Notes: generated from the sequence alone by a model not told the origin. Positions 6,323 through 36,442 are shown, counted from the stretch's first letter. The stretch is DNA of 64,000 nt from an uncultured Bifidobacteriaceae bacterium (GCA_964501785.1 CAZCUD010000006.1:158084-222083), one strand, 5' to 3'. A program made the numbers and translations.

Positions 6323-7488
6323 CCACGATCCCACGGCCGACCCGCTTCGGCGCGTTCGTCGCGCCCTACCACGGGCTGGCAGGGAACCCGACCCTCCAGA
6401 TGCGTCGCGACCTCGAACTCGCGGTGCTGCTCGACGACCTCGGGTACGACGAGATCTGGTTCGGCGAGCACCACAGCGGTGGCTACGAGACCTTCGCGTC
6501 GCCCGAGCTGATGATCGCGGCAGCGGCGGAGCGCACGAAGCGCATTCGCCTCGGTACCGGCGTGAACTCGCTCTCGTACCACCAACCGTTCATCCTGGCC
6601 GACCGCATCATGCAGCTCGACCACCTCACCATGGGGCGGGCGATGCTCGGGATCGGGCCCGGCCAGCTGCCGTCGGACGCGTTCATGCTCGGCATCGATC
6701 CGCGTGACCAGCGCGACATGATGATCGAGGCCGCCGAGGTGATCCTCCCGCTGCTGCGCGGTGAGGTCGTCAGCCGGCGCACCGACTGGTTCACGCTCGA
6801 CGAGGCCCGGCTCCAGCTCCGTCCGTTCTCGCCCGACGGCATCGAGGTGGCGGTCGCGTCGACGTCGTCACCGACCGGCGCGACGCTCGCCGGCCGGCTC
6901 GGGCTCTCGATCCTGTCGCTCGCCGCGACCGACCCGACCGGCTTCGACGCACTCGACGCCAACTGGGAGCACTTCGAGCGCAACGCCCGCGAGCACGGCA
7001 ACCCGATCGACCGCAGCCGCTGGCGGGTCGTGGCGACGATGCACCTCGCCGAGACGCGCGAGCAGGCGATGCGCGAGATGGAGCACGGCGTCCTGACGCT
7101 CTGCGGGTACTTCGAGGGCATGTCCAACGCCAAGATGCCGTGGGCCGGATCGCCCCAGGAGGCGCTCACGCACTGGACGACCAACGGCTACCCGAACTTC
7201 GGGGTCGCCACCGTCGGGACCCCCGACGACGCACTCGCGACGATCGAGAAGCTGAGCGCGAAGACGGGTGGCTTCGGCACGTTCCTCTTCCTCGCGCACA
7301 ACTGCGCCGACTGGCACGCCACGCGGCGCTCGTACGAGCTGTTCGCCGAGTACGTCATCCCGGCGTGCCGAGAGATGAACGTCGGCCGCGAAGCGAGCAT
7401 CGGCTGGGTCGGCCAGAACACCGGCAAGTTCTTCGGCGCCATGCTCGAAGCCACCCAACAGGCGATCGAGAAGTACTCCCGCCCCTGA
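6319..7488 (+). CDS. LLM-class (luciferase-like) flavin-dependent monooxygenase
   Basis: ORF track, with an ATGA overlap with the P450 stop. LLM TIM-barrel pattern: FGEHHSGGYE, RIRLGTGVNSL, MLGIGPG. Confidence 0.9.
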   Translation: MTTIPRPTRFGAFVAPYHGLAGNPTLQMRRDLELAVLLDDLGYDEIWFGEHHSGGYETFASPELMIAAAAERTKRIRLGTGVNSLSYHQPFILADRIMQLDHLTMGRAMLGIGPGQLPSDAFMLGIDPRDQRDMMIEAAEVILPLLRGEVVSRRTDWFTLDEARLQLRPFSPDGIEVAVASTSSPTGATLAGRLGLSILSLAATDPTGFDALDANWEHFERNAREHGNPIDRSRWRVVATMHLAETREQAMREMEHGVLTLCGYFEGMSNAKMPWAGSPQEALTHWTTNGYPNFGVATVGTPDDALATIEKLSAKTGGFGTFLFLAHNCADWHATRRSYELFAEYVIPACREMNVGREASIGWVGQNTGKFFGAMLEATQQAIEKYSRP

Positions 7489-7505
7489 CCGTCCCCCCGC
7501 GCGGA

Positions 7506-7554
7506 CTTCTCGGCACGTCGACGCGTGGCCGGGCTGTCTCAGCGTGCCGAGAAG
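7506..7554. terminator. Inverted repeat between convergent genes (possible bidirectional terminator)
   Basis: CTTCTCGGCACG (7506-7517) pairs with CGTGCCGAGAAG (7543-7554). The arms are 12 bp and the loop is 25 nt. There is no U-tract. Confidence 0.4.
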
Positions 7555-7557
7555 CCC

Positions 7558-8109
7558 TCAGGTGGGCGCGCCACCGTTGGTGGCGACGCGCTGCTTCACG
7601 CCGAGCTCGAGTGCCCAGCGCTCGGCGCGGTCGCGCTCGCCGCGGACGAGCACGTTCTGCTTGTCCACGAGGAAGCTCTCGGGCGGCGCGACGAGCGTGC
7701 AGCCGGCCATGTGCAACATCTTCCCGATCCGCTTCGACGCTCGTCCCGTGAGCGCTCGGGGGCCGCGGACCCGCGTGTCGAACGCCGCCGCCGCGACCTC
7801 GGTCTGGGGCATCGCCTCCAGCCAGTCGCGGACGCCGGGGCCCTCGGCGCTGTCGTCGAGCGTCAGGCCGCTGTCGGGCTTCTTCGCCGTCTCGATGGCT
7901 GCCATCCGTGTCGTCGAGCGGCTCATCCCGTGCACGTGCGTCGGTCCGCCGACCACGAGCAGGTCGACGGGCGCTGCGGCCAGCGCGGCGTCGGCGTCGG
8001 CGACGGGGACCAGCTCGACCTGCATGGAGGCCTGGAGCCCCGCACGGATGGCATCCGCGATCTCGTGGGTGTTGCGGTACATCGACTCGTAGACCACCAG
8101 GGCTCGCAC
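7558..8109 (-). CDS. Flavodoxin-fold protein
   Basis: ORF 7558..8193 trimmed to GTG 8109, which is preceded by GAGGAGG. RALVVYESMYRNTHEIADAI...LLVVGGPTH is flavodoxin-like. Confidence 0.75.
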   Translation of the reverse strand: MRALVVYESMYRNTHEIADAIRAGLQASMQVELVPVADADAALAAAPVDLLVVGGPTHVHGMSRSTTRMAAIETAKKPDSGLTLDDSAEGPGVRDWLEAMPQTEVAAAAFDTRVRGPRALTGRASKRIGKMLHMAGCTLVAPPESFLVDKQNVLVRGERDRAERWALELGVKQRVATNGGAPT

Positions 8110-8302
8110 CGAGCGCGCCTCCTCTTGCTCCCCGCCGGCTCTTCGGCTCGATGATGCCCCAGACCGGAACGGCTCGACAGGGCCCAACGTCACTTCGCAC
8201 GTGTCGTGCGCGGGACCTTCGTCCCTGGCTGTGGCGGCGACGGCGGGGCACCATGAACCTCCCGGTGCCGCAGGGTCGGACCGTCGGAGAGAGAGGACCC
8301 AG

Positions 8303-12327: not shown

Positions 12328-14905
12328 ACGACCCGGCGGCGCGCACGGGCTGACGGCGGCCGAGGCGGCCGAGCGCCTCGTCCGGGACGGTCCGAACGCG
12401 CTGCCGGTCCCGAGGGCCACACCGGCGTGGCGGCGCTTCGGAGCCGAGCTGGTCCACTTCTTCGCGCTGCTGTTCTGGGCCGCCGGAGCCCTTGCCTTCA
12501 TCGCCGGCCTGCCGCAGCTGGGCGTCGCCGTGTTCATCGTCATCGTGCTCAACGCGGCGTTCGCCTTCGTGCAGGAGCAGCGGGCCGAGCACGCCGCGGA
12601 GCGGCTGCGCGACATGTTGCCCCGCCAGGCCACGGTCGTGCGCGACGGATCGCCGTCCGCCATCGACGCCGACGACCTGGTCGTCGGAGACCTGGTGCGC
12701 CTCGAGCAGGGAGACCGGATCTCGGCCGACCTCGAGGCCGTCGCGGTGCACGACTGCGCGGTCGACGTGTCGGCGCTCACGGGTGAGAGCGTCCCGGTGC
12801 GACCGACACGCGGCGACCTGCTCTTCGCGGGTTGCTTCGTCGTCGAAGGCGAGGCCGACGCCGTGGTCGTGGCCGTGGGGTCAGCGACCCGGCTGGCGGG
12901 GATCGCGCGCCTCACGCGCACGCACAAGCCGGCCGCGACGCCCCTCCGCCGCGAGCTCGACCGCTTGTCCCGCATGATCGCGGCCATCGCGATCGGAGTC
13001 GGCGGCACGTTCTTCCTGCTCGCGCTGCTCCTCGGGACGCCCGCGTCGGACGGCTTCCTCTTCGCCGTCGGCGTGACGGTCGCGGTGGTGCCGGCGGGCC
13101 TGCTCCCGACCGTGACCTTGTCGCTGGCGATCGGTGCTCAGCGGATGGCCGCCCGGCACGCGCTCGTCCGGCACCTCGAGGCCGTCGAGACGCTGGGCTC
13201 CACGACCTTCATCTGCACCGACAAGACGGGCACCCTCACGCGCAACGAGATGGAGGTCGTCGAGGCATGGATGCCGTCGGGACGCGCGTCGATCCATGGC
13301 CGAGGCTACGAGCCGGCCGCAGCGGTCGACGTGGAGTCGAACGCCGTCGCGCGAGATCTGATCCAGATCGCCTCGGCGGGGACGATCTGCTCGACGGGAC
13401 GGGCGGTTCGCGACGACGAACAGGGGCGATGGGTGGCGCGGGGAGACCCGATGGAAGCGGCGATCGCGGCGCTCGCGGCGCGGGTGGGCGTCGACGCGGC
13501 GGACCTCGATCCTCCGGTCATCCGGCGGTTCCCGTTCGACCCGAGGCGCCGTCGCATGTCGGTCGTCGTCGACGACGCGGTGCTGGTGAAGGGGGCGCCG
13601 GACGCGGTCATCCCGCGCTGCGGGCCCTCGGCCGGCGCGGACGACGCGGTGCACGCGATGGGGCAGCGCGGGCTGCGTGTCCTCGCCGTGGCTCGCCGCC
13701 CCTGGTCGGGGACCGCGCCGGCCGCGGTCGACGACGCCGAGCGGGATCTCGAGCTGCTCGGCCTCCTCGGGTTCGAGGATCCGCCCCGCGAGGGAGCCGC
13801 CGAGGCGATCGCACGGTGCCGGGGCGCCGGCATCAGCGTCGCGATGGTGACGGGTGACCATCCCGCCACCGCCCTCGCCGTGGCCCGGGAGGTCGGCCTG
13901 GCTCGCGAGGGTGCACCGGTCGTGACCGGAGCCGAGCTGCCCATCGACGACGACGCGCTGGCCGCCGCGATCGAGCTCGACGGCACCGTGATCGCCCGGG
14001 TCTCGCCCGAGGACAAGCTGCGCATCGCCGAGGTGCTCCAGCGACGCGGCCACGTCGTCGCGATGACCGGCGACGGCGTCAACGACGCGCCGGCACTGCG
14101 CGAGGCCGCGATCGGCGTCGCGATGGGGAGGGCTGGTACCGACGTCGCACGGGAGGCGGCGGACCTCGTGCTGCTGGACGACGACTTCGCGACCATCGTC
14201 GCCGCGGTCGAGCAGGGACGCTCGACGTTCGCGAACATCCGCCGCTTCCTCACGTACCACCTCACCGACAACGTGGCGGAGCTGGCTCCCTTCATCGTCT
14301 GGGCGCTCTCGGGCGGCTCGTTCCCGCTCGCCTTCAGCGTCCTCCAGCTGCTGGCCCTCGACATCGGCACCGACGTCCTCCCCGCGCTGGCGCTGGGCGC
14401 GGAGCCGCCTGGCGAGCACGTCCTCGACCGTGCGCCGCGCCGCCGCCACCTGGTCGACCGCACGGTGCTGCTGCGTGCCTTCGGCGTCCTCGGGCCAGCC
14501 GAGGCCACCGTCGCGCTCGTCGCGTTCGTGGTCTCGTTCGTCGCGGCGGGGTGGGCGCCGGGCGATCCCTTCCCCGAAGGTCATGTGCTCCTGGCCGCGT
14601 CCGGCGCCGCGTTCACGGCGGTGGTGCTCGGGCAGGTGGCGAACGCGTTCGCGTGTCGCAGCACGGTGCGGCTGGTCTGGCGCGTGTCGTTGCGGTCGAA
14701 CCGGCTGCTGCTCGTCGCGATCGGGGCCGAGCTCGTGATGCTCCTCGGGTTCCTGTTCGTGCCCCCGATCGCCGACCTGCTCGACCAGGCGCCACCGTCG
14801 TGGGCGGGCTTCGGCGTCGCGCTGCTCGCGATCCCCGCGGTCCTGGCCGCGGACACCGTGCAGAAGACGGTGGTGCGACTTCACAGTCCCCTGATGAGGC
14901 GCTGA
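12311..14905 (+). CDS. Cation-translocating P-type ATPase
   Basis: ORF track. Motifs: TGES, the DKTGTLT phosphorylation site, TGDGVNDAPAL and the N-terminal GLTAAEAAERL motif. Multiple TM segments are present. Confidence 0.95.
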   Translation: MPGLAERPGGAHGLTAAEAAERLVRDGPNALPVPRATPAWRRFGAELVHFFALLFWAAGALAFIAGLPQLGVAVFIVIVLNAAFAFVQEQRAEHAAERLRDMLPRQATVVRDGSPSAIDADDLVVGDLVRLEQGDRISADLEAVAVHDCAVDVSALTGESVPVRPTRGDLLFAGCFVVEGEADAVVVAVGSATRLAGIARLTRTHKPAATPLRRELDRLSRMIAAIAIGVGGTFFLLALLLGTPASDGFLFAVGVTVAVVPAGLLPTVTLSLAIGAQRMAARHALVRHLEAVETLGSTTFICTDKTGTLTRNEMEVVEAWMPSGRASIHGRGYEPAAAVDVESNAVARDLIQIASAGTICSTGRAVRDDEQGRWVARGDPMEAAIAALAARVGVDAADLDPPVIRRFPFDPRRRRMSVVVDDAVLVKGAPDAVIPRCGPSAGADDAVHAMGQRGLRVLAVARRPWSGTAPAAVDDAERDLELLGLLGFEDPPREGAAEAIARCRGAGISVAMVTGDHPATALAVAREVGLAREGAPVVTGAELPIDDDALAAAIELDGTVIARVSPEDKLRIAEVLQRRGHVVAMTGDGVNDAPALREAAIGVAMGRAGTDVAREAADLVLLDDDFATIVAAVEQGRSTFANIRRFLTYHLTDNVAELAPFIVWALSGGSFPLAFSVLQLLALDIGTDVLPALALGAEPPGEHVLDRAPRRRHLVDRTVLLRAFGVLGPAEATVALVAFVVSFVAAGWAPGDPFPEGHVLLAASGAAFTAVVLGQVANAFACRSTVRLVWRVSLRSNRLLLVAIGAELVMLLGFLFVPPIADLLDQAPPSWAGFGVALLAIPAVLAADTVQKTVVRLHSPLMRR

Positions 14906-26072: not shown

Positions 26073-27166
26073 CGCTCGCGCCGACGCTGGGGACGCGCCG
26101 CGGGCCGGAGCCGCGATCGATCGACGGCGCGATCGCCGCGCTCGACGCGTCCGCCGACGAGCTCGGCGGTGCGCTCGGGGTCGACGGCCCGGCGCTGCTG
26201 CGCGAGCGGGCCGCGATCCTCGGCATCGCGCCCGACGGCACGGTGTCGGCAGGGGGGTCGTGCCGGCTGCTGCGCGCGGGCGACGGCCGGTGGGTGGCGA
26301 TGAACCTGGCGCGCCGCAGCGACACCGAGCTGCTCGGCGCGTGGATGGCTCGCGACTGGCCGGCGCCCGGGGAGTCGAACGCTCCCTGGGACGCGGTCCG
26401 CGCCCACGTGGCGACGGTCGCCGCCGAGCCGGCGGTCGAGCGGGCCCAGCTGCTGGGCATCCCGGCTGCGGTCGCGGTTCCCGCCTCCGGCGCTTCGGTC
26501 CCGGTGCGGCTGACACGAGGTGCCCCGCGGCAGGCAGCGCTCGCGCGTCGGGTGGTGCTCGACCTGTCGTCGCTGTGGGCCGGTCCGCTGTGCGCCCGGC
26601 TCCTCGGGACGCGCGGCGCCTTGGTGCGCAAGGTCGAGCTGGTCGATCGCCCCGACGGGGCGCGGGCGGGCGATCCCGAGTTCTGGCGCCGGCTCAACGG
26701 TGCGAAGCAGGACGTCGCGGTGCGGCGCGACGAGCTGGCGCGCATGGTCGACGGCGTCGACGTGGTCGTCACCTCGGCCCGTCCGCGTGGTGTCGAGCAG
26801 CTCGGCCTCGATCTCGAGCGCCGCGTCCACGACGAGGGGATCGTGTGGGTGACGATCACCGGGTACGGCTACCGGAGCGAGTGGCGCGACCGGGTGGCGT
26901 TCGGCGACGACGCCGCGGTCGCCGGTGGTCTCGCCGTCGCGGCCGGTGGTGAGCGCCCGGTCTTCGTCGGTGATGCGCCGGCGGACCCGTTGAGCGGCCT
27001 GCACGCCGCACGGGCGGCGACGTCGCTGCTCGACGAAGGTGTCGGAGGAGTGGTCGACGTGAGCATGCGCGACGTGGTCGCGCACGCCCTGGTGTCGGCC
27101 GGGTACGGTGCAGACGACCAGCAGCCGGGTGCTCGAGCGCACGGCTCTGACGTGGAGGATGCGTGA
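26069..27166 (+). CDS. Family III CoA-transferase-like protein with non-canonical segment order
   Basis: Tail of ORF 25496..27166. The CaiB-type Rossmann motif VVLDLSSLWAGPLCARLLGTRGALVRKVE lies mid-protein. The small-domain-like block CRLLRAGDGRWVAMNL...LLGIPAAVAVP precedes it. There is no ATG/GTG/TTG before GTG 26243, so the start is set at CTG 26069 (CTGA overlap with the SDR stop). The boundary is uncertain. Confidence 0.6.
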   Translation: MTLAPTLGTRRGPEPRSIDGAIAALDASADELGGALGVDGPALLRERAAILGIAPDGTVSAGGSCRLLRAGDGRWVAMNLARRSDTELLGAWMARDWPAPGESNAPWDAVRAHVATVAAEPAVERAQLLGIPAAVAVPASGASVPVRLTRGAPRQAALARRVVLDLSSLWAGPLCARLLGTRGALVRKVELVDRPDGARAGDPEFWRRLNGAKQDVAVRRDELARMVDGVDVVVTSARPRGVEQLGLDLERRVHDEGIVWVTITGYGYRSEWRDRVAFGDDAAVAGGLAVAAGGERPVFVGDAPADPLSGLHAARAATSLLDEGVGGVVDVSMRDVVAHALVSAGYGADDQQPGARAHGSDVEDA

Positions 27167-27660
27167 TGGCCCGACTCGAGCTGCCCGAAGGTGACCAGCC
27201 GGAGATCGTGAAGATCTGGTCGCTGCGCCCCGAGATGGGAGCCGCGGTGGCTGGCCTGTCCACCGCGGTGTACCAGCAGAGCCAGCTGCCGCCCCGGGTG
27301 CGCGAGGCGGCGCGGATGCGGGTCGCCCAGATCAACGGCTGCGTGGTGTGCCAGGGCTGGCGCATCCCCGAGCTCGCCGAGCAGGGCGTCGACGAGGAGC
27401 TCTACGCCGACGTCGCCGACTGGAAGACGGCGCCGCAGTACTCCGACCAGGAGCGACTGGCGATCGAGTACGCGGAGCGCTTCTGCCTCGACCATCGCGG
27501 CATCGACGACGCGTTCTTCGCGCGGCTGAAGGAGCACTTCACCGACCCGGAGATCCTCGACCTCACGATCTGCATCGGCAACTGGGTCGCGTTCGGACGG
27601 CTCACGATGCTGCTCGACCTCGACGAGGCCTGCGAGGTGCGTCCGCGCGCCACGGTGTGA
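27166..27660 (+). CDS. Carboxymuconolactone decarboxylase (AhpD-like) family protein
   Basis: ORF 27163..27660, starting at ATG 27166 (1-nt overlap with the upstream TGA). It has the AhpD-like CxxC (INGCVVCQGW). Confidence 0.85.
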   Translation: MARLELPEGDQPEIVKIWSLRPEMGAAVAGLSTAVYQQSQLPPRVREAARMRVAQINGCVVCQGWRIPELAEQGVDEELYADVADWKTAPQYSDQERLAIEYAERFCLDHRGIDDAFFARLKEHFTDPEILDLTICIGNWVAFGRLTMLLDLDEACEVRPRATV

Positions 27661-27667
27661 GGCGCGG

Positions 27668-28888
27668 GTGACATCGGTACCCACCAGCGTGCCGGGCACC
27701 GGCGCACCGGATCTGTTCGACCTCTCGCTGTTCGCCGACGGCCCGCCGCACGAGCTCTTCGCACGCCTGCGGGCAGAGTCACCGGTGACGTTCTTGCCCG
27801 AGCGCGACGGGCCCGGCTTCTGGGGCGTCTTCTCGTACGACGAGCTGTTCGAGGTCTCGCGCCAGCCGCAGCGCTTCGGCTCGTACCCGAGCGTCTTCAT
27901 CCACGACGACGAGGGCGAGGAGACGGGCGCGAGCGAGCTGATGCTCAACCAGGACCCGCCCCGCCACACCCAGCTGCGGAAGCTGGTCAACAAGGGCTTC
28001 ACGCCGCGCCAGATCAATGCGCTCGAGCCGCGCATCCGCGAGCGGGTCGGGGCGATCCTCGACAGCGCAGCGGCGCAGGGAACGTTCGACCTCGTCAGCG
28101 ACCTCGCGGTCGAGGTGCCACTCCAGGTGATCGCGGAGCTCGTCGGCGTGCCCGAGGACGAGCGCCACACGGTGTTCGCGTGGACCGAGCGCATGATGAC
28201 GATCGACGATCCCGAGTCGGAGGGGGGCGTCGAGGACGCACGTGCCGCGATCGGCGAGATGTTCGCCTACGTCGACCGCCTCGCCGCCGAGCGCGCCGAG
28301 AGCGACGGCGACGACCTGCTGAGCGTGCTGCTGCGCGCCGAGGTCGACGGTGACCGGTTGACGCCGCTCGACGTCGATCTGTTCTTCATGCTGCTGATGA
28401 ACGCGGGCAGCGAGACGACCCGCAACCTCATCACCGGCGGGATGCTGACGCTGTTCCAGCAGCCCGACGAGCGGGAGCGACTCGCGAGCGATGCCGCGCT
28501 GCTCCCCACGGCGATCGAGGAGATGCTCCGCTGGGTGACGCCCGTGATGCACTTCCGGCGGACGGCGCGTGCCGACACCGAGCTCGGCGGCCAGGAGATC
28601 CGCGAAGGCGACAAGGTCGTGATGTGGTACTCGTCGGCGAACCGCGACGAGTCGCAGTTCCCCGATGCCGATCGCTTCGACGTCGGGCGCACACCCAACG
28701 ACCACGTCGCGTTCGGCGCCGGCGGCCCTCACTTCTGCCTCGGTGCGAGCCTCGCCCGCCTCGAGGCGCGGATCGTGTTCGAGGAGCTGCTCGAGCGGAT
28801 GCCCCGCCTCGCACCCGCCGGGCCGGTGAAGCGCCTCGGGTCCAACTTCATCAACGGCATCAAGTCGCTCCCCGTCACGACCGGCTGA
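27668..28888 (+). CDS. Cytochrome P450
   Basis: ORF track with a GTG start. It has the I-helix NAGSETTRN, ExxR (EEMLRW) and the heme loop FGAGGPHFCLG. Confidence 0.95.
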   Translation: MTSVPTSVPGTGAPDLFDLSLFADGPPHELFARLRAESPVTFLPERDGPGFWGVFSYDELFEVSRQPQRFGSYPSVFIHDDEGEETGASELMLNQDPPRHTQLRKLVNKGFTPRQINALEPRIRERVGAILDSAAAQGTFDLVSDLAVEVPLQVIAELVGVPEDERHTVFAWTERMMTIDDPESEGGVEDARAAIGEMFAYVDRLAAERAESDGDDLLSVLLRAEVDGDRLTPLDVDLFFMLLMNAGSETTRNLITGGMLTLFQQPDERERLASDAALLPTAIEEMLRWVTPVMHFRRTARADTELGGQEIREGDKVVMWYSSANRDESQFPDADRFDVGRTPNDHVAFGAGGPHFCLGASLARLEARIVFEELLERMPRLAPAGPVKRLGSNFINGIKSLPVTTG

Positions 28889-28897
28889 GGCGCTGCC

Positions 28898-29584
28898 GTG
28901 GACGCACCGCTCGCCGGCAAGCGCGTCGTCGTCACGGGCACCGAGTCCGACGTGGGGCGTGACCTGCTCGAGGGCGTGCTCGACGGCGGTCCCGCCCACG
29001 CGACCGGGATCGCGACGGACGACCTCGCGACGAAGGAGCAGGTCGACCTCCAGGTCGAGCAGGCAGCCGAGGCGGGGGGTGGGCCGATCGACGTCGTCGT
29101 CCATGCGGCGATGCCTGCGATCGCGTTCGAGGCGACCGACCTCGCCGACGTCGACGACGAGCGCTGGGACGCGGTGTGGGAGGGCACGATGCGCTCCACG
29201 CTGTTCGTGCTCCAGGCCGCGTACCGGCAGATGGCGGGGCGCGGGGGCTCGATCGTCCTCGTGACGCCGACGGTGTCGATGTCGGGCGCGGAGCGCCTCG
29301 TGCCCTACACGACCGCCGTCGAGGGCCAGCGCCTCCTCGCCAAGTCCGCGGCTCGACAGTGGGGACCCGACGGGATCCGGGTCAACTGCGTCGCGCCCGC
29401 GCCCGAGCAGGTGCCGATCGGGGTCGACTCGATGTCGGTGTCGCTCGCGCCGCCCGCGCTCGGCGGACCGGGTGACGTCACCGACGACGTCGGTCCCGTC
29501 GTCGTGTGGCTCGCGAGCGATGCCGCACACTTCGTCACCGGTGTGACCGTGTGCGCCGACGGCGGCGTCTGGATGGCACCGTGA
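28898..29584 (+). CDS. SDR-fold protein with degenerate cofactor and catalytic motifs
   Basis: ORF track with a GTG start. TGTESDVG replaces TGxxxGxG. The catalytic Tyr is present but the +4 Lys is Val (YTTAV). The rest is collinear with SDRs (IRVNCVAP). Confidence 0.75.
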   Translation: MDAPLAGKRVVVTGTESDVGRDLLEGVLDGGPAHATGIATDDLATKEQVDLQVEQAAEAGGGPIDVVVHAAMPAIAFEATDLADVDDERWDAVWEGTMRSTLFVLQAAYRQMAGRGGSIVLVTPTVSMSGAERLVPYTTAVEGQRLLAKSAARQWGPDGIRVNCVAPAPEQVPIGVDSMSVSLAPPALGGPGDVTDDVGPVVVWLASDAAHFVTGVTVCADGGVWMAP

Positions 29585-30372
29585 GCGCGACCACGCCGGG
29601 TTCGGCGGGCACGCGGCTCGAGGGCCGCACGGTCGTCGTCACCGGCGCGGGCCAAGGGGTGGGCGAGGGGATCGCGCTCGCCTGTGCGGCGCAGGGCGCC
29701 AACGTGGTGATCGCCGCGCGGCGTGCGGAGACCGGAGAGCCGGTGGCCGAGGCGATCCGGGCGCGGGGCGACGAGGCGGTGTGCATCGTCACCGACGTCA
29801 CCAGTCGCGAGTCGATGGAGGCGTGCGTCGCGCAGACCGTCGAGCGGTACGGCGGCCTCGAGGTGATGGTGCACAACGCTTACCGAGGTGCCGCGCCGCA
29901 CCGCCTCGAAGACCTCGAACTCGAGCTGTGGGAGCGCAACTCGCGCACCGCGGTGTGGGGCTCCTACTACTCGGCCGTGCTCGCGTTCCCGCACCTGCGC
30001 GCCGCCGACGGCAAGGGGCGGCTCATCCTGATCACGTCGCCGTCCGGGGTGGAGGGGAGCGTCAACATCCCGATCTACTCGCCGGTGAAGGCCGCGCAGC
30101 GCGCGATCGCCAAGTCGCTGTCGCGCGAGTGGGGCCCGCTCGGCATCACGGTGAACTGCATCGCGCCGGTGGCCGCCAGCCCCGCGCTCGTCGGCGCGTT
30201 CGAGCAGAACCCGGTGCTCGAGGAGCGGGTCACCGCCCGCACCTCGCTGCGGCGGATCGGCGACCTCGAGCACGACATCGGCCCGGTCGCGGTCTTCCTG
30301 GCGAGCGACGACGGTGGGTACGTCACCGGCCAGACCGTGGTCTGCGACGGCGGCTCGTTCATGGGGCTGTAG
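29581..30372 (+). CDS. SDR-family oxidoreductase
   Basis: Tail of ORF 29506..30372. GTG 29581 forms a GTGA overlap with the upstream stop. Motifs TGAGQGVG and YSPVK are intact. Confidence 0.9.
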   Translation: MSATTPGSAGTRLEGRTVVVTGAGQGVGEGIALACAAQGANVVIAARRAETGEPVAEAIRARGDEAVCIVTDVTSRESMEACVAQTVERYGGLEVMVHNAYRGAAPHRLEDLELELWERNSRTAVWGSYYSAVLAFPHLRAADGKGRLILITSPSGVEGSVNIPIYSPVKAAQRAIAKSLSREWGPLGITVNCIAPVAASPALVGAFEQNPVLEERVTARTSLRRIGDLEHDIGPVAVFLASDDGGYVTGQTVVCDGGSFMGL

Positions 30373-30383
30373 AGGCGCCGGAG

Positions 30384-30791
30384 ATGGACGCCCGTTCGCT
30401 CGACGACGCGCTCGCCCGCCGTCCGGATCTCCGCGGCCCGCTCGACGACCTGGTGGCGACGATCCGCTCCGGGCCCGTCGAGGCCGACCTCCTCGACGGC
30501 TGCGACGCGCTGATCCGCCACCGCATCGGGGTCGCGCCGAGCGGCCCGGTGCCCGACGTCGGCGCCGCGTCGCTCGACGACCGCACGCGCGCGGTGCTGG
30601 TGATGGCCGAGCAGTTCGTCGTCGATCCGCACGGCATCGACGTGTCGATGCGCGACGCGGTGCTCGACCACTGCTCGCTCGCCGAGCTCGCGACGCTCGT
30701 GCAGGCGTTCGCGGTGTTCGACGCCCGAGCCCGGATGGAGGCAGTCTTGGTGGAGCAGGACGGAACCGCGGATCAGGAGGCGAGCGGATGA
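30384..30791 (+). CDS. AhpD/CMD-like helical protein lacking the CxxC motif
   Basis: Tail of ORF 29781..30791, starting at ATG 30384 after GGAG. It is helical and CMD-like (LDDRTRAVLVMAEQFVVDPHGI) but has no CxxC. Confidence 0.6.
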   Translation: MDARSLDDALARRPDLRGPLDDLVATIRSGPVEADLLDGCDALIRHRIGVAPSGPVPDVGAASLDDRTRAVLVMAEQFVVDPHGIDVSMRDAVLDHCSLAELATLVQAFAVFDARARMEAVLVEQDGTADQEASG

Positions 30792-31303
30792 CGGAGGCCC
30801 GGCACGCACCGCCGAAGGCTCGACACCGGGTCCCGCCCGACGTCCTCGACCAGAACCCCGAGGCCGCGGCGGCGTTCTGGCGCCTCTACGGGACCTTGTG
30901 GAGCCACGGGACCGTCGACATGCCCACGAAGGAGGTCGCGCGCCTGCGCAACGCCCGCACGACCGGGTGCAACTACTGCAAGGCGGTGCGCTTCGAGGGC
31001 GCGCGCGACGCGGGCCTCACGGAGGATCGGGTCGACCTGATCACCGACGACTATGCGGCGAGCGACCTGTCGGTCCGCGACAAGGCGGTCATCCGCTACG
31101 TCGACACGATGTTGCACGACCCGCACGGCATGACACCCGAGCTGCGGGCCGAGCTCGCGGCGGAGCTCGACGACGGCCAGCTCGTCGAGCTGACCCTCGG
31201 CATCGGGCTCTTCCACGGCTTCTCCAAGATCGCGGTCGCCCTCGGGCCACCCCCCGACATGCCGACGATGATCGTCCCCACCCCCGACGTCCCGCCGGCC
31301 TGA
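30788..31303 (+). CDS. Carboxymuconolactone decarboxylase (AhpD-like) family protein
   Basis: Tail of ORF 30314..31303, starting at ATG 30788 (ATGA overlap). It has the CxxC motif (TGCNYCKAV). Confidence 0.85.
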   Translation: MTEARHAPPKARHRVPPDVLDQNPEAAAAFWRLYGTLWSHGTVDMPTKEVARLRNARTTGCNYCKAVRFEGARDAGLTEDRVDLITDDYAASDLSVRDKAVIRYVDTMLHDPHGMTPELRAELAAELDDGQLVELTLGIGLFHGFSKIAVALGPPPDMPTMIVPTPDVPPA

Positions 31304-31311
31304 ACCGTTTC

Positions 31312-31350
31312 GGCGTCAGCAGACCCGGCTGACGCGGGACTGCTGACGCC
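31312..31350. terminator. Hairpin between convergent CMD gene and amine oxidase gene
   Basis: GGCGTCAGCAG (31312-31322) pairs with CTGCTGACGCC (31340-31350). The stem is 11 bp and the loop is 17 nt. Confidence 0.5.
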
Positions 31351-31367
31351 AGAACGATCGGCGCGGG

Positions 31368-32783
31368 CTAGTAGATCGTGCGGAGGACCTGCATCGCGTC
31401 GGCGACGATCTCGGCGTCCGAGCGGGACTCCAGCCGGCGGGCGTAGCCGGCGGCGTTGAAGCCGATGAGGATCGGCTCGTCGGTGAGGCGGGAGAGGTCG
31501 TACCACTCGTTCCAGCGCCCTTTGACCGGCGACACGTACTCGATCAGCTCGACGTCGCGGTCCCAGAAGACGCGCGGGAATCGCAGCCAGAGCTTGTCGA
31601 GCAGACCCATGCCGAGGCTCGAGATCGCGGTGCGGATCGGGCGCGGCAGCGGTGGGTCGAAGCGGACCGCGTCCTGCTGGAGCACGCCGAGGGGGAGCGT
31701 CACGACGACGTGGTCGGCGGTGAACGTCTCGACGCCGGTCTCCGGTCCGGCCTGGGACTCGCTGGACGTGCGGACCTCGCGCCCCGACCAGTCGATCGCG
31801 CGGACGACGTGCTTGAGGCGCACATCGAGGCCCTCGGCCAGCAGCGCGGGCAGCCACGCGTAGCCCGTCTCCGGCATGAGGACGTCACCGCCGGGGAACG
31901 CCTCGTCGTCGTCCCACCAGTGCAGCGAGAGCTCGTCGACGTCGGCCGCGTACTCGAGCTCGATGTTGACGGTGATGGCGTGGTCGACGCCGAGGCGTTC
32001 GGTTCGCGACCAGCCGCGCCGACGCATGACGTCGTCCATCGCCCGCCCCAGCGATGTGTCCGCGTCACGACGTTCGCGTGCTCGATCGACGGCGCGCAGG
32101 AGCTCCTCGAAGCGTCGGTAGATCGCTCGCTCGTCGCGTGCCGACGCACCAGTGCCGTCGGGGAGGTAGAGGCGCGAGCTGTCGTAGTCGGTGGGCGCGC
32201 GGGGGATCCGGGCTTCGTCGGCCAGCTCGGTCACGGGGTTCCCGCGCACGCCGTGGATCCACGAACCGCCGAGGTCGAGGGGCAGCCCGAGATCGTCGAC
32301 GGTGTGGACCCGCCCGCCGATGCGGTCGCGGGCTTCGAGCACCGTCACCCGGTGCCCGGCGTCGGCGAGCTCGCGCGCCGCCGCCAGCCCCGCGACGCCC
32401 GCGCCGACGACGAGCACGGTCGCGCTGCCCCCGGCGACGTCGACGACGTCGCGGGCGACCCGCCGCCCGGAGAGGAGCGCCCCGTGCACGGTGGCGGCGT
32501 GATCGACCGAGGTCGCCTCGCCGGCGAAGAAGACCCGGCCGTCGACGGGCCGGGCCAGTGCCCGACGATCGTCGCTGCTCGCGCCGACGCCGATGAAGGA
32601 GTACGAGCCGAGCGCGAACGGGTCGTCGCCCCACCGGGTGATCAGGTACCCGATCGGGTCGGGGATCCCCTGGGTCGGCGGCGTGCCGGCGCGGGCGATC
32701 GAACCGCGGACCGCGAGTCCACCGAGCGCGAGCGCACCGGCACCGGCCAGGAACGACCGGCGGCTCGGCCGCGCCGGGCTCAC
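31368..32783 (-). CDS. Tat-signal flavin-containing amine oxidase, circularly permuted relative to canonical family order
   Basis: ORF track. GTG 32783 overlaps the upstream stop (GTGA). It has a twin-arginine signal [10 protein letters not shown]. The canonical C-terminal block ([15 protein letters not shown]...FFAGEAT...HGALLSG) precedes the FAD fold [36 protein letters not shown]. Confidence 0.9.
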
Positions 32784-34210
32784 GTCGCGCCGAGCTCCTC
32801 GCGCACCGTGCGCCGCAGGATCTTGCCCGTGGCGGTGTGGGGCAGCTCGTCGCGGATCACGATCGTCTCGGGCGTCTTCAGGCTCCCGAGATGCCCGCGG
32901 ACGTGGGCGCGCAGCTCGTCCTCGTCGGCCGCTGCTCCGGCCCGCAGCGACACCATCGCGACGACGCGCTCACCCCACTCCTCGTCGGGGATGCCGACGA
33001 CCGCGGCCGCGCCCACCGCGGCATGGTGCAGCAGCGCGTCCTCGACCTCGGCAACGCCGATGTTCTCGCCCCCGCGGATGATCGTGTCGTCGCCGCGCCC
33101 CTCGACGAACAGGTAGCCGTCGTCATCGAGCCGCCCGAAGTCGCCGGTCGCGAGCCAGCCGTCGGCGTCGCGCGTCGACCCGACCCCGGCGTACTGGCCC
33201 GACACCTGCGCCCCGCGGAGATGGATCTCGCCGGTCGTTCCCGGGGCGCACTCCTGGCCGTCGCTGACGATGCGGACCTCGATGCCGGGCACGGGGCGAC
33301 CCGCGCAGCCGAGGCGCGCTCGCACGCGCGGCTCGTCGCTCGCGGCGGCGAGCCGGTGGTCGTCGGGCCCGAGGATGCAGACGGTGCTGCTCGTCTCGGT
33401 CAGGCCGTACGCGTTGACGAAGCCGGTGTCGGGCAACAGCTCGAGGGCTCGCTCGAGCACCGGCGTCGGCATCCGTGCGCCGCCGTAGGAGAGCGCGCGG
33501 AGCGCGGGCGGGCGCAGCGCGGGGTCGGCCTCGAGGACGTGGACGATGCGAGCCAGCATGGTCGGCACCAGGAACGCGTGCGTGATGCGCTCCTCCGTCG
33601 CTGCTTCGAGCCATGCCTCGGGCGTGAACTGGGGCAGCGGGACGATGCGGCGTCCCGCGTACGTCGACGTGAGCACGGCGGTCACGCCTGCGATGTGGAA
33701 CGGCGGGACTGCCAGGAGCACCGCCTCGTCCTCGTCCGCCGCCGCGAACTCCATGGTGTTGAGCTGGTAGGCGAGGAGCTGGTCGTGCTCGAGCACCGCC
33801 GCCTTTGGCTCGGCGGACGTGCCGCTGGTGAAGAGCAGCACCGCCGGGCGCGACGGCTCCTCGGGGTAGGGCGCGTCGTCGCCGCCGGGCATCGCGATCC
33901 ACGACTCGTCGGCGACCGCCGCGGGCTCGAGTCGGGCGAGGAGCGCGTCGCGGGCGTCGGCCGGCAAGCGGTAGTTGAGGGGCGCGTACGAGACCCCGGC
34001 CCAGGCGGCGCCGAAGAGCACGGCGGGCACGAGCGGTGACGTCTCGGTCACGAGGGCGACGTGGTCCACCTCGGCGGACGCCAGGTGCGCGCCGATCGCT
34101 CGGGCGCGCGCACGCAACGACGCGAAGGTGAGGCCGCCGTCGCGCGGGCCGATGGCGACCCGATCGCCGAGCCCGTCCGCGGCCATGTCGAGCAGCATTG
34201 CGATGTTCAC
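32780..34210 (-). CDS. Class I adenylate-forming enzyme (acyl-CoA ligase-like)
   Basis: ORF 32780..35170 trimmed to GTG 34210 (GTGA overlap; alternative ATG 34198). Motifs: [52 protein letters not shown]. Confidence 0.9.
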
Positions 34211-35274
34211 AGCGTCTCCGCGATCTCCAGGGCGCGTCCGCGCAGGTCTTCGGGCGGGACGACCTCGTCGACGACACCCAGCTCGCGCGCCTCGGCGGCC
34301 GAGATCGTACCGTCGCGCAGCAAGAGCCCGAGGACCGTGCGGCGCCCGGCGCGCCGGGCGATCGAGACCGTGCCGCCGGCGCCGGGGACGAGGCCGATCG
34401 ACTGCTCGGGGAGGCCGATGCGCGTGTCGTCGGCCGCGACGACGTGGTCGGCGAACGCAGCCAGCTCGATGCCGGCGCCGAGGCAGGTCCCGTGGATCGC
34501 GACGACGAGGCGCTCGTGGAGCGCGGCGAAGCGCGACGCGGGGGAGCGGAGCAGCCGCACGACGTGCGCGGTCGCCGGGTCGGGGAAGGTGGCAAACTCG
34601 TCGAGGTCGCCGCCGGACGAGAACGACGGTCCGTCCCCGCGCACGAGGATGCCCCCCTCGCCCCACGCGGCCGCGCCGAGGGCGGCGTCGAGCGCGTCGC
34701 GCATCGCGACGTCGAGCGCGTTGTGGCGGGCGCCGCGCGTGAGCACGATCTCGGTCACCCGCCCGTCGGCGCCCGCCCGGTCGACCCGGACGCGGGGCTC
34801 GTCGGCATCGCTCGCCGGACGGCGCGGCGTCGCCGCGCGCCACGCGAGGAACTCGGGCCCCGACTGGAGCACCGAGTAGGTCGCGGACTCGGCGACGAGG
34901 CCGTCGTCGACGTCGCTGCGGGGCGACCGCAGCAGGAGCGCCGCGCTCACCGCGGCGATCGGCGCCCGGGTGAACGCGGCCTCGAGCGAAGGGAGGTCGT
35001 CGGCGCGGACCGTCAGATCGAACGCGGCGGCGTAGGGCGCGTCGAAGGCGCCCTCGCGGTCGTCGGGCAGCTCCGCGGGGGGATCGACGGCGACGGTGAG
35101 CGCAGGGACGGCGCGCAGCACCGCTCGGCTCGAAGGTGGGATCGAGTCGGGCCACGGTGCCTCGAAGCACACGCAGGCGCCGGGACCGAGCCCTTCACGC
35201 AGGACTGCATCGAGCGCGCCGCCCCCCACGGACAGGACGTCGGCGCGGAGGTGGACGATCGCCCTCTTCTTCAG
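34207..35274 (-). CDS. Crotonase-fold protein: degenerate C-terminal crotonase segment fused upstream of an N-terminal crotonase core
   Basis: ORF 34207..35385. The part above 35274 overlaps the mini-protein gene in another frame. Homology begins at KKRAIVHLRADVLSVGGG, right after CTG 35274 (CTGA overlap). The alternative canonical start is GTG 35229. The second half is a normal crotonase core (GARHNALD...GDGPSFSSGGDL...HGTCLGAGIELA). Confidence 0.7.
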   Translation of the reverse strand: MKKRAIVHLRADVLSVGGGALDAVLREGLGPGACVCFEAPWPDSIPPSSRAVLRAVPALTVAVDPPAELPDDREGAFDAPYAAAFDLTVRADDLPSLEAAFTRAPIAAVSAALLLRSPRSDVDDGLVAESATYSVLQSGPEFLAWRAATPRRPASDADEPRVRVDRAGADGRVTEIVLTRGARHNALDVAMRDALDAALGAAAWGEGGILVRGDGPSFSSGGDLDEFATFPDPATAHVVRLLRSPASRFAALHERLVVAIHGTCLGAGIELAAFADHVVAADDTRIGLPEQSIGLVPGAGGTVSIARRAGRRTVLGLLLRDGTISAAEARELGVVDEVVPPEDLRGRALEIAETL

Positions 35275-35414
35275 TCGGACGAGGGGAGCGGCTTGGCCTG
35301 GGCGATCTCCATCGCCTGGCCGTGGCACGTCACCTCGCCGTCGCCTGCCTTGGTCACCAGGACCGTCGCCTCGCAGACGCCGCACTGGTATCGCTTGCCC
35401 AGCAGGTTCGCCAT
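35271..35414 (-). CDS. Desulforedoxin-like metal-binding mini-protein (47 aa, Cys3-His variant)
   Basis: Not in the ORF track (<60 aa). It runs from ATG 35414 to TGA 35271-35273 with high GC3 and AAGGACG upstream. In MANLLGKRYQCGVCEATVLVTKAGDGEVTCHGQAMEIAQAKPLPSSD the pattern is C-x2-C-x15-C-H. Confidence 0.6.
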   Translation of the reverse strand: MANLLGKRYQCGVCEATVLVTKAGDGEVTCHGQAMEIAQAKPLPSSD

Positions 35415-35418
35415 CTCG

Positions 35419-35544
35419 CTACGCGTCCTTGGCGCCCATCGGCGTGCCGCAGCAGGAGATCTCCTCGTCGGTGCCCTTCACGACGATGATCTCGGTGCCG
35501 CACTGCTCGCAACGCAGGCGCGTTCCCACTGCCGTCGGTGCCAT
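35419..35544 (-). CDS. Desulforedoxin-like metal-binding mini-protein (41 aa)
   Basis: Not in the ORF track (<60 aa). It runs from ATG 35544 to TAG 35419-35421 with high GC3. In MAPTAVGTRLRCEQCGTEIIVVKGTDEEISCCGTPMGAKDA the pattern is C-x2-C-x15-C-C, the same spacing as desulforedoxin. Confidence 0.65.
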   Translation of the reverse strand: MAPTAVGTRLRCEQCGTEIIVVKGTDEEISCCGTPMGAKDA

Positions 35545-35563
35545 GCGGGCAGACTATCGCCGC

Positions 35564-36442
35564 ATGTCCGAACGACCGGAAGCCCCCGAGGTCGCCGACC
35601 TTCACGTCGAAGATCTGCGCTTCGAGGTGATCGACCGCGTCGCGCTCGTGACCCTCGACCGGCCCGAGCGGCGCAACGCGTTCACCGGCGCGATGGGCGC
35701 CAGCCTCGGACGCGTCTACGCGCACTGCGACGCCGACGACGAGGTGCGCGCGGTCGTGGTGACGGGGGCGGGCGACGCGTTCTGCGCCGGAGCCGACCTC
35801 ACCCCTCAGGGCGACACGTTCGCGGCGCCCGACGCACGCGACGGTGCCGGTGCCGCGGGAGCCGAGAGGCCGTTCACCTCGTCACCGGTGCGACCGACGG
35901 CGTGGGAGATCCGCAAGCCCGTGCTGGCCGCGATGAACGGGCACGCCATCGGCATCGGCATGACGCTCGCGATGCACTGCGACCTGCGCTTCATGGCCAC
36001 CGGAGCGAAGTACGGGTTCGTGCACAACCGCCGCGGCGTGCTTCCCGACGCGCACTCGCACTGGACGGTGCCGCGCGCGGTCGGGTTCGCGCGCGCCGCG
36101 GACCTGCTGCTCTCGGGGAGGCACTTCAGCGCCGAGGAAGCGTTCGCGATGGGCCTGGCGGCGCGCGCCCTGCCCGCCGACGAGGTCCTGCCCGCGGCGA
36201 TGGACTACGCGCGCGACCTCGCGGTCAACACCGCGCCGCTGTCGATCGCGCTGTCGAAGCGGCTCCTGTGGCACCAGCCGACCCTCGACGCCGACGAGTG
36301 CGATCGCCTGGAGACCGCGTACCACCGGGTCGTCATGGGTCGTGACGACGCCCGTGAGGGCGTCATGGCCTTCCTCGAGCGGCGAGACCCGCAGTGGTCG
36401 CTCAGCCCCACCCGCGACTGGCCCGAAGACCTGGACTCCTAG
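35564..36442 (+). CDS. Enoyl-CoA hydratase/isomerase family protein
   Basis: ORF 35096..36442 trimmed to ATG 35564. Motifs: DRPERRNAF, VVVTGAGDAFCAGADL, NGHAIGIGMTLAMHCDL. Confidence 0.9.
   Translation: MSERPEAPEVADLHVEDLRFEVIDRVALVTLDRPERRNAFTGAMGASLGRVYAHCDADDEVRAVVVTGAGDAFCAGADLTPQGDTFAAPDARDGAGAAGAERPFTSSPVRPTAWEIRKPVLAAMNGHAIGIGMTLAMHCDLRFMATGAKYGFVHNRRGVLPDAHSHWTVPRAVGFARAADLLLSGRHFSAEEAFAMGLAARALPADEVLPAAMDYARDLAVNTAPLSIALSKRLLWHQPTLDADECDRLETAYHRVVMGRDDAREGVMAFLERRDPQWSLSPTRDWPEDLDS

Follow-up and report, generated by a model that had tools for sequence, protein, structure and literature searches.

A putative circular permutant of the polyamine oxidase/LSD1-type flavin amine oxidases in Actinomycetota

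The flavin amine oxidases of the monoamine oxidase (MAO), polyamine oxidase (PAO) and LSD1 types have been heavily studied and, to our knowledge, all described members share one chain order. Natural circular permutants are known from other families, for example the motif-order classes of the DNA methyltransferases, saposin and swaposin, some transaldolases and glucanases, and an origin by duplication and fusion is supposed for them. For the bacterial flavin amine oxidoreductases (FAOs), a study from 2025 (PMC12224317) reports that enzymes exported through twin-arginine translocation (Tat) whose gene is adjacent to a cytochrome c gene are dehydrogenases, whereas the Tat-only enzymes mostly react fast with O2. 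Here we analyze a gene at positions 31368..32783 (minus strand) of a 64,000-nucleotide stretch of DNA from an uncultured bacterium (CAZCUD010000006.1:158084-222083, hereafter the window). We consider it quite probable that this gene encodes a genuine circular permutant of a PAO/LSD1-type amine oxidase dependent on flavin adenine dinucleotide (FAD), that the enzyme is exported by the Tat pathway, and, on weak to moderate support, that the permuted form had a single origin within the actinobacteria.

The gene is a single open reading frame (ORF) of 471 amino acids (aa) with a GTG start and a TAG stop at 31368-31370. It runs without interruption, as an earlier reading made from the sequence alone (the sequence-only reading) had described it, and all peptide strings quoted there are present. 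The GC content at third codon positions is 0.93, the level usual for genes in the 70-77% GC sequence of the window. The whole protein matches the Pfam family Amino_oxidase (PF01593, 443 positions) with 265.6 bits against a cut-off of 19.8 bits, and it does so in two stretches. In the canonical order the Rossmann fold comes first and the segment which contacts the FAD comes last; in the window protein these two blocks are swapped. When residues 38-120 are searched alone, profile positions 369-442 of 443 are matched at aa 40-113 (77.4 bits, E = 1.8e-21). Residues 121-471 alone match positions 1-365 of 443 at aa 130-471 (197.2 bits). A canonical relative used as control (P0054) matches positions 2-441 in one collinear stretch.

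The comparison with human LSD1 is of the same kind. With phmmer, three separately significant stretches were found against the LSD1 chain 6vyp_M: residues 121-241 align with chain positions 111-230 (independent E-value 6.6e-14), residues 272-470 with 366-566 (9.4e-27) and residues 38-120 with 570-664 (8.4e-11). In the numbering of full-length LSD1, residue 470 of the query corresponds to position 734 and residue 38 to position 738, so that the chain ends exactly where its front block would begin in LSD1. The same can be read from the relatives. The window protein ends with VLRTIY and its mature N-terminus starts with QGIPDP, and canonical relatives run on as LRTIYG-xx-IPDP. When de-permuted and canonical sequences are aligned, LRTIY(G) is seen to be the end of the permuted chains and (V/I)PDP...TRW their restart, whereas the canonical chains are continuous; the break lies in a loop of 3-4 residues. 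The length is kept, with 471 aa compared to 430-495 aa in canonical relatives. The sequence-only reading had claimed two non-collinear profile matches, a front block equivalent to the extreme C-terminus of canonical enzymes, a chain end at the canonical entry into this block and a conserved overall length. All four hold.

The relocated block comprises aa 38-118 (32430..32672, minus strand), which are the last ~80 residues in canonical enzymes; there they close the FAD-binding domain with a strand, a GSYS(Y/F) segment, an FFAGE(A/H)T motif and a long helix. In the window protein the block carries a strand (ITRW), Tyr61 (nucleotides 32601-32603) within GSYSF, the FAD-contact motif FFAGEAT (aa 85-91, nucleotides 32511-32531) and a long closing helix (aa 99-116). 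This former C-terminal helix is joined to the first strand of the Rossmann fold, beta-1, by a new connection, AGGSA (aa ~117-121, 32421..32435, minus strand). The connection has no canonical counterpart, as canonical chains end 0-5 residues past the helix; permuted relatives have short linkers of variable length at this place. Then follows the main block, aa 121-471 (31371..32423, minus strand), which corresponds to the first ~365 profile positions and is delimited by the Pfam match, the alignments with LSD1 and LSD2, the structural matches and the column conservation described below. It contains the GxGxxG motif (aa 127-132, nucleotides 32388-32405), Glu150, the substrate domain and Lys397 (nucleotides 31593-31595), and the chain ends after a helix spanning aa 456-470.

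We searched for relatives with the same order, as the sequence-only reading had proposed. Among the best 120 proteins from a database of 5.8 billion sequences, 67 are permuted (43-78% identity) and 53 are canonical (about 45-50%). A query spanning the junction (aa 30-200) against 1.84 billion representatives clustered at 50% identity gave 59 further permuted clusters among the best 150, and a scan of the GTDB species genomes gave 11 permuted loci among the best 80. The latter comprise metagenome-assembled genomes (MAGs) of Acidimicrobiia/Acidimicrobiales/Ilumatobacteraceae and Actinomycetes and one labelled Pseudomonadota, as well as the isolates Microbacterium sp. F2, Cryobacterium cheniae TMT2-48-2 and 'Actinobacteria bacterium IMCC26207'. 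The breakpoint loop is the same in the permuted proteins, clusters and GTDB loci alike, and in the GTDB loci a leader with two arginines (RR) precedes the relocated block. Permuted order was seen at identities down to ~35-40%. We therefore regard the permuted order as real biology which, judging from the sequences, is conserved across an actinobacterial clade. The permuted gene from the Pseudomonadota-labelled MAG (L072, 4033-5154) has its nearest relative in a member of the Ilumatobacteraceae (L042); it could reflect bin contamination or horizontal transfer.

An AlphaFold2 model of the window protein, built with an alignment of the permuted family, reached a mean predicted local distance difference test (pLDDT) score of 91.7 and a predicted template modelling score of 0.88. 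Residues 38-471 are modelled confidently, with pLDDT 94-98 in the relocated block, and aa 1-37 are disordered (pLDDT below 50). In the model, a link of five residues with pLDDT of at least 95 leads from helix 99-116 into strand beta-1 (122-126), and this implies that the canonical termini adjoin each other in the predicted fold. Foldseek matched the model to LSD2, LSD1 and maize PAO over ~370 columns with a root-mean-square deviation of 2.2-2.3 Å and a TMq of 0.69. For LSD2 the values were E = 1.6e-28, ~370 columns and 2.3 Å (4hsu_A), and maize PAO (1b37_B) gave a TMq of 0.64. Thus, the two-domain amine oxidase fold is present, although a sequential aligner cannot include the 80 relocated residues. 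The model of the canonical control P0054 (pLDDT 91.8) matches the same LSD2 entries over ~440 columns with a TMq of 0.86-0.87; the shortfall of ~70 columns in the permuted protein corresponds to the relocated block. No solved structure in the PDB matched the window protein over its full length, and therefore it appears that structures of permuted members are still lacking; the solved structures that were matched here all have the canonical chain order.

When the query sequence is rotated by ~83 residues, 422 instead of 345 residues are globally aligned with P0054, at a score of 1030 compared to 708 before. A rotation scan in steps of 20 residues has its maximum at 80, beside the true offset of 83. 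Over the 80 residues of the relocated block the predicted secondary structure agrees with the P0054 model to 99% (Q3 0.99). Overall, the two models are equally confident and their secondary-structure strings are rotations of each other. We note, however, that the canonical position of the relocated block in the folded protein rests on homology, model confidence and the rotation of the secondary structure, which is a point against too firm a statement. The folded protein should be essentially the canonical enzyme with relocated termini; the equivalence is seen in sequence, in secondary structure and in part of the fold, and for the full three-dimensional structure it is probable. The prediction of structure, which the sequence-only reading had proposed, gave a confident model with the LSD2/LSD1/PAO fold and a rotated order of its elements. 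Together with the non-collinear profile matches and the orthologs of the same order, it agrees with the proposal of a circular permutation instead of a truncation or fusion.

The conservation pattern looks like that of an active, not a decaying, enzyme. An alignment of 51 permuted proteins, which share 47-67% identity with the query, has 50 invariant columns, of which 17 lie in the relocated block. Glu89 of FFAGEAT is invariant in the permuted members, and the GxGxxG motif (Gly127, Gly129 and Gly132) and Glu150 are fully or almost fully conserved. The dinucleotide-binding motif is also matched by NAD_binding_8 (65 bits) and shows the expected elements in the model (strand 122-126, helix 130-141, strand 145-149). 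Tyr61 corresponds to LSD1 Y761 and is Tyr in 65 of 67 permuted members. Lys397 corresponds to LSD1 K661; here 55 of 67 permuted members have Lys, 11 have Arg and one has His, whereas Lys is found in all 53 canonical sisters. A further column, His177, is Glu in 14 of the 67 permuted proteins and His in 50 of the 53 canonical sisters. The changes in these two columns may indicate a functional shift in a permuted subclade. As the FAD-binding and catalytic positions are kept, the permutant has probably been maintained by selection.

How often did the permuted order arise? In neighbour-joining (NJ) trees built from de-permuted and canonical sequences the permuted proteins group together in the best topology in each case, divergent permuted sequences have permuted nearest neighbours and permuted sequences are almost confined to Actinomycetota. 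With 15 diverse canonical sequences added, all 77 permuted sequences are still found in one clade, with a single long-branch canonical sequence intruding. Among the canonical enzymes, those of Kitasatospora and Actinomadura are not the closest relatives. Several points weigh against a single origin. The split of 67 permuted from 53 canonical sequences has a modest bootstrap of 133/200, and the split of 77 from 53 has 113/200. In the enlarged tree the strictly clean split was recovered in 20/200 replicates, and in 119/200 when up to 2 misplacements are allowed. Moreover, canonical enzymes of Chloroflexota resemble the query more closely than some of the permuted members do: the main block of the Microbacteriaceae/IMCC26207 type has 34-40% identity to the query, that of the canonical Chloroflexota 43-47%. 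Last, a shared breakpoint could be a structural constraint. The order might hence have arisen several times at one permissive loop, which we consider unlikely in view of the topology and the taxonomic confinement, yet clearly worth keeping in mind. We favour one ancient event within Actinomycetota, a reading which is weakly to moderately supported and not secure.

Two observations on canonical genes belong here. A gene of canonical order from a Mesorhizobium-labelled MAG (L055, 7010-8272), whose main and C-terminal blocks are separated by an atypical gap, is placed among the permuted sequences by NJ, which is probably a long-branch artefact. Kitasatospora sp. NPDC048722 (L020) has two canonical copies, at 7013-8266 (plus strand) and 12607-13863 (minus strand), which are ~4.3 kb apart.

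We suggest that an actinobacterial ancestor already had a canonical enzyme exported by Tat and that the permuted form would have emerged from it, probably by tandem duplication and fusion followed by loss of the redundant parts. Since the leader stays in front, trimming of the ends of a tandem dimer is not sufficient, and either an internal deletion or a replacement of the leader must be assumed. Neither an intermediate with the block at both ends (C-N-C) nor any other intermediate was present among the best 150 representatives, which speaks against this route; a search with an artificial C-N-C sequence gave no match above ~500 aa and no protein with the block at both ends. Fusions of the NCNC type and of three units do exist, namely P0121 (1449 aa), P0156 (993 aa), P0242 (928 aa), P0254 (971 aa) and P0261 (973 aa). 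They consist of two or three complete PAO-like units arranged head-to-tail with secretory-type leaders, and their composition resembles that of eukaryotes (insects). Either they are true tandem fusions or neighbouring paralogs were merged in the gene models. We rejected them as ancestors, as they are eukaryote-like and have 41-44% identity across the junction region. They serve as an analogy only.

As to function, the sequence matches in the PDB are best for LSD1 and LSD2 (E ~1e-55 to 1e-58), spermine oxidase (5e-45) and maize PAO (1e-41). MAO-type enzymes match mainly via a Rossmann region of ~70 residues. By these similarities the window protein is placed in the PAO/LSD1 branch of the flavin amine oxidoreductases, and the PAO/LSD1-type fold suggests a polyamine-like amine as substrate. 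Outside the cell the enzyme would oxidize a C-N bond of such an amine with O2 as acceptor and H2O2 as product. For the acceptor we searched for haem c-binding motifs. No CxxCH motif occurs in genuine coding frames at 21-43 kb of the window, and no gene with this motif is found near the oxidase in the permuted loci L001, L002, L005, L015, L073 and L080. With no cytochrome c gene nearby and with the precedent of the Tat-only FAOs (PMC12224317) we therefore favour an exported oxidase using O2 and acting on a polyamine-like amine. A counterpoint is that substrate and acceptor are assigned by analogy and that the gene neighbourhoods outside the Acidimicrobiia are unrelated.

The protein could instead be a dehydrogenase similar to NicA2 and Pnao, which hands the electrons to another extracytoplasmic acceptor. 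Tat-exported FAOs can indeed depend on cytochrome c, and at least one enzyme with a Tat signal but without a neighbouring cytochrome c gene is poorly reactive with O2 (PMC12224317). Yet most Tat-only enzymes in the same study react fast with O2, none of seven permuted loci has a gene with a haem c motif near the oxidase, and the protein belongs by similarity to the PAO/LSD1 branch and not to that of NicA2. We thus give the dehydrogenase a low but real probability.

The leader comprises aa 1-37 (32673..32783, minus strand). It has the motif SRRSFL (aa 7-12, nucleotides 32748-32765), a hydrophobic stretch rich in Gly and Ala and, by inspection, a likely cleavage site ARA|G (aa 30-33). The leader has no lipobox Cys. 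RR leaders are found in 44 of 49 complete permuted and in 39 of 45 complete canonical relatives. In many relatives, permuted as well as canonical, the RR motif is followed by a lipobox (A(G/A)C), for example in the leaders of P0035-P0066, L005, L015, L042, L050, L061, L073 and L080; these are predicted to be Tat-dependent lipoproteins. The sequence-only reading had claimed a Tat signal for the window protein. The motif, the hydrophobic stretch, the putative cleavage site and the RR conservation agree with this, although the leader is borderline for the profile hidden Markov models: it scores 16.0 bits with TIGR01409 against a curated cut-off of 16.7, and 14.5 bits with Pfam TAT_signal against 22.7. 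The Tat assignment is thus mainly due to the family-wide conservation of the RR motif. The same reading had paired Tat signal and permutation in its title. The data show no link between the two: the RR leader is common to both chain orders, and export is therefore a trait of the subfamily which would be older than the permutation. By the permutation, the C-terminal block has come to stand behind the leader and ahead of the Rossmann fold. Since all FAD-binding and catalytic positions are kept, FAD is most likely taken up in the cytoplasm and the folded protein then exported through the Tat pathway, with a predicted cleavage of the leader near ARA|G.

Besides the sub-threshold scores, the genetic context does not fit well with export. 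The gene is apparently coupled in translation to genes of a cytoplasmic CoA pathway, which is odd for an exported enzyme, and the 4-bp overlap with ECH or AMP-ligase genes is conserved, as is a block with SDR, P450 and CMD genes (see below). The RR motif might therefore not be a working export signal, and the enzyme could act in the cytoplasm together with the co-transcribed enzymes of the CoA pathway. We think this distinctly improbable. RR motif and hydrophobic stretch are kept in ~88% of the complete members of both forms, a lipobox Cys as found in many members is only sensible for an exported protein, and in the model the leader is predicted to be disordered and separate from the fold. Export by the Tat pathway remains our preferred reading.

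Two further alternatives concern the gene itself. The true start could lie at the Rossmann fold (about aa 120), where annotators would expect the N-terminus of this family and for which GTG/ATG-type codons are available, with aa 1-118 as a vestigial or mis-called 5′ extension; this is very improbable, as the protein would then lack FFAGEAT, the active-site Tyr and the closing helix with no C-terminal replacement, 51 proteins agree in 17 residues of the block, and the block is modelled as part of one compact fold. That the 3′ end of one amine oxidase gene was joined to the 5′ end of another by chimeric assembly or a sequencing artefact, a doubt which the sequence-only reading had itself raised, is practically ruled out: the contig is apparently of the metagenome type and P0001 lies in a single NCBI contig with no second record by exact look-up, but the same order and breakpoint recur at 35-78% identity in at least 77 sequences, which come from separate assemblies and from isolates, permuted relatives have the leader directly ahead of the relocated block, and the window has no second oxidase copy or stray fragment and a uniform composition across the junction.

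Upstream of the oxidase lies an AMP-ligase-like gene (about 32780-34195, minus strand; Pfam AMP-binding). Its TGA stop and the GTG start of the oxidase overlap in GTGA (32780..32783, minus strand), which suggests that the two genes are co-transcribed and translationally coupled. At orthologous loci an ECH gene overlaps the start of the oxidase by 4 bp in the same way. Just after the stop of the oxidase, between this gene and a convergent CMD gene (plus strand, ending at 31303), we found a strong hairpin (31303..31359, minus strand) with a folding energy of -40.7 kcal/mol (z = -6.7, 200 shuffles) and a perfect stem of 11-12 bp. It has no T-run and for this reason was not flagged by a consensus terminator scan. 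Probably it is a transcription terminator which would act in both directions.

The gene neighbourhood is conserved among the Acidimicrobiia (window 27163-36442; L001 5814-13605; L002 5811-12342) at only 56-59% protein identity. The order is two divergent ECH genes, the oxidase, the convergent CMD gene, an ORF of 136/137 aa, two SDR genes, a P450 gene and a further CMD gene. The 136/137-aa ORF (window 30380-30791) has no Pfam match. Among the compared Acidimicrobiia loci, only the window has the AMP-ligase gene between ECH and oxidase. In Cryobacterium, Microbacterium and IMCC26207 the flanks of the oxidase are unrelated to this block. As the block is conserved only among Acidimicrobiia, the neighbourhood gives no reliable clue to the substrate. 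At orthologous loci, a conserved ORF of 47 aa with a weak match to Desulfoferrodoxin_N is located upstream of the oxidase, between the divergent ECH genes (L001 6836-6979; L002 6819-6962; L003 3462-3605).

The sequence-only reading knew of no described permuted member of the family. A search of full-text papers, in which most of the subscription literature is missing, likewise gave no account of a flavin amine oxidase with permuted order, and the databases name these proteins only 'FAD-dependent oxidoreductase' or 'monoamine oxidase'. A survey of the FAO superfamily does not mention a permuted chain order (PMC12224317). Apparently, such an enzyme has not been reported. Circular permutation itself is a known phenomenon and the chemistry of the enzyme is probably ordinary; the finding neither opens a new biological mechanism nor settles a long-standing question. 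It does indicate that the fold tolerates new termini at the loop ahead of the last segment of the FAD domain, which is useful for the engineering of split or sensor enzymes. Permuted and canonical sisters at ~48% identity form a matched pair to study folding order, FAD insertion and Tat export. For annotation there is a warning, since split and out-of-order domain matches may pass for fusions, truncations or misassemblies. And there is an evolutionary puzzle in the signal peptide that has stayed in front, for which duplication and trimming is not enough.

It is doubtful that the permutation is adaptive and not neutral. If it were, two of the three segments of the FAD domain would be contiguous at the start of the chain, behind the Tat leader, and the FAD-binding half could fold and take up its cofactor at an early point, ahead of proofreading and export by Tat. 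The membrane tether of those members that are lipoproteins would be shifted to a different face of the enzyme. The clade would then be a natural experiment on how chain order affects cofactor loading and export of flavoenzymes.

The closest systems are the canonical PAO/LSD1-like oxidases with Tat leaders from Chloroflexota, Cyanobacteria, Cohnella and Kitasatospora (P0054, P0048, P0062, P0080 and P0084), which are ~45-51% identical over both blocks. They have the same length, RR leaders (often of lipoproteins), the FAD motifs and the Lys and Tyr positions, but differ in that leader, Rossmann fold, substrate domain and C-terminal block follow each other in this order and that ~440 instead of ~370 columns align with LSD2. 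We know of none that has been characterized biochemically. Among characterized enzymes the best matches are LSD1/KDM1A, LSD2/KDM1B, maize polyamine oxidase, spermine oxidase, PAOX and yeast Fms1 (E = 4e-58 to 1e-20), and equivalents of the catalytic Lys (LSD1 K661) and Tyr (Y761) are kept in the window protein. These enzymes are collinear, eukaryotic and intracellular or apoplastic, and LSD1 and LSD2 carry SWIRM and tower insertions, whereas the window protein is permuted, bacterial and has an export leader. NicA2 and Pnao belong to the same superfamily and have a Tat leader which exports the pre-folded FAD enzyme, yet they represent another branch and have an adjacent cytochrome c gene, in contrast to the permuted window protein with no cytochrome c gene nearby (PMC12224317). 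From the classical permutants the window protein differs in fold and family, in the lack of a detected intermediate and in the signal peptide which is still in front. What it has in common with them is the rotated order of one fold, in which a surface loop carries the new termini and a short linker connects the old ones.

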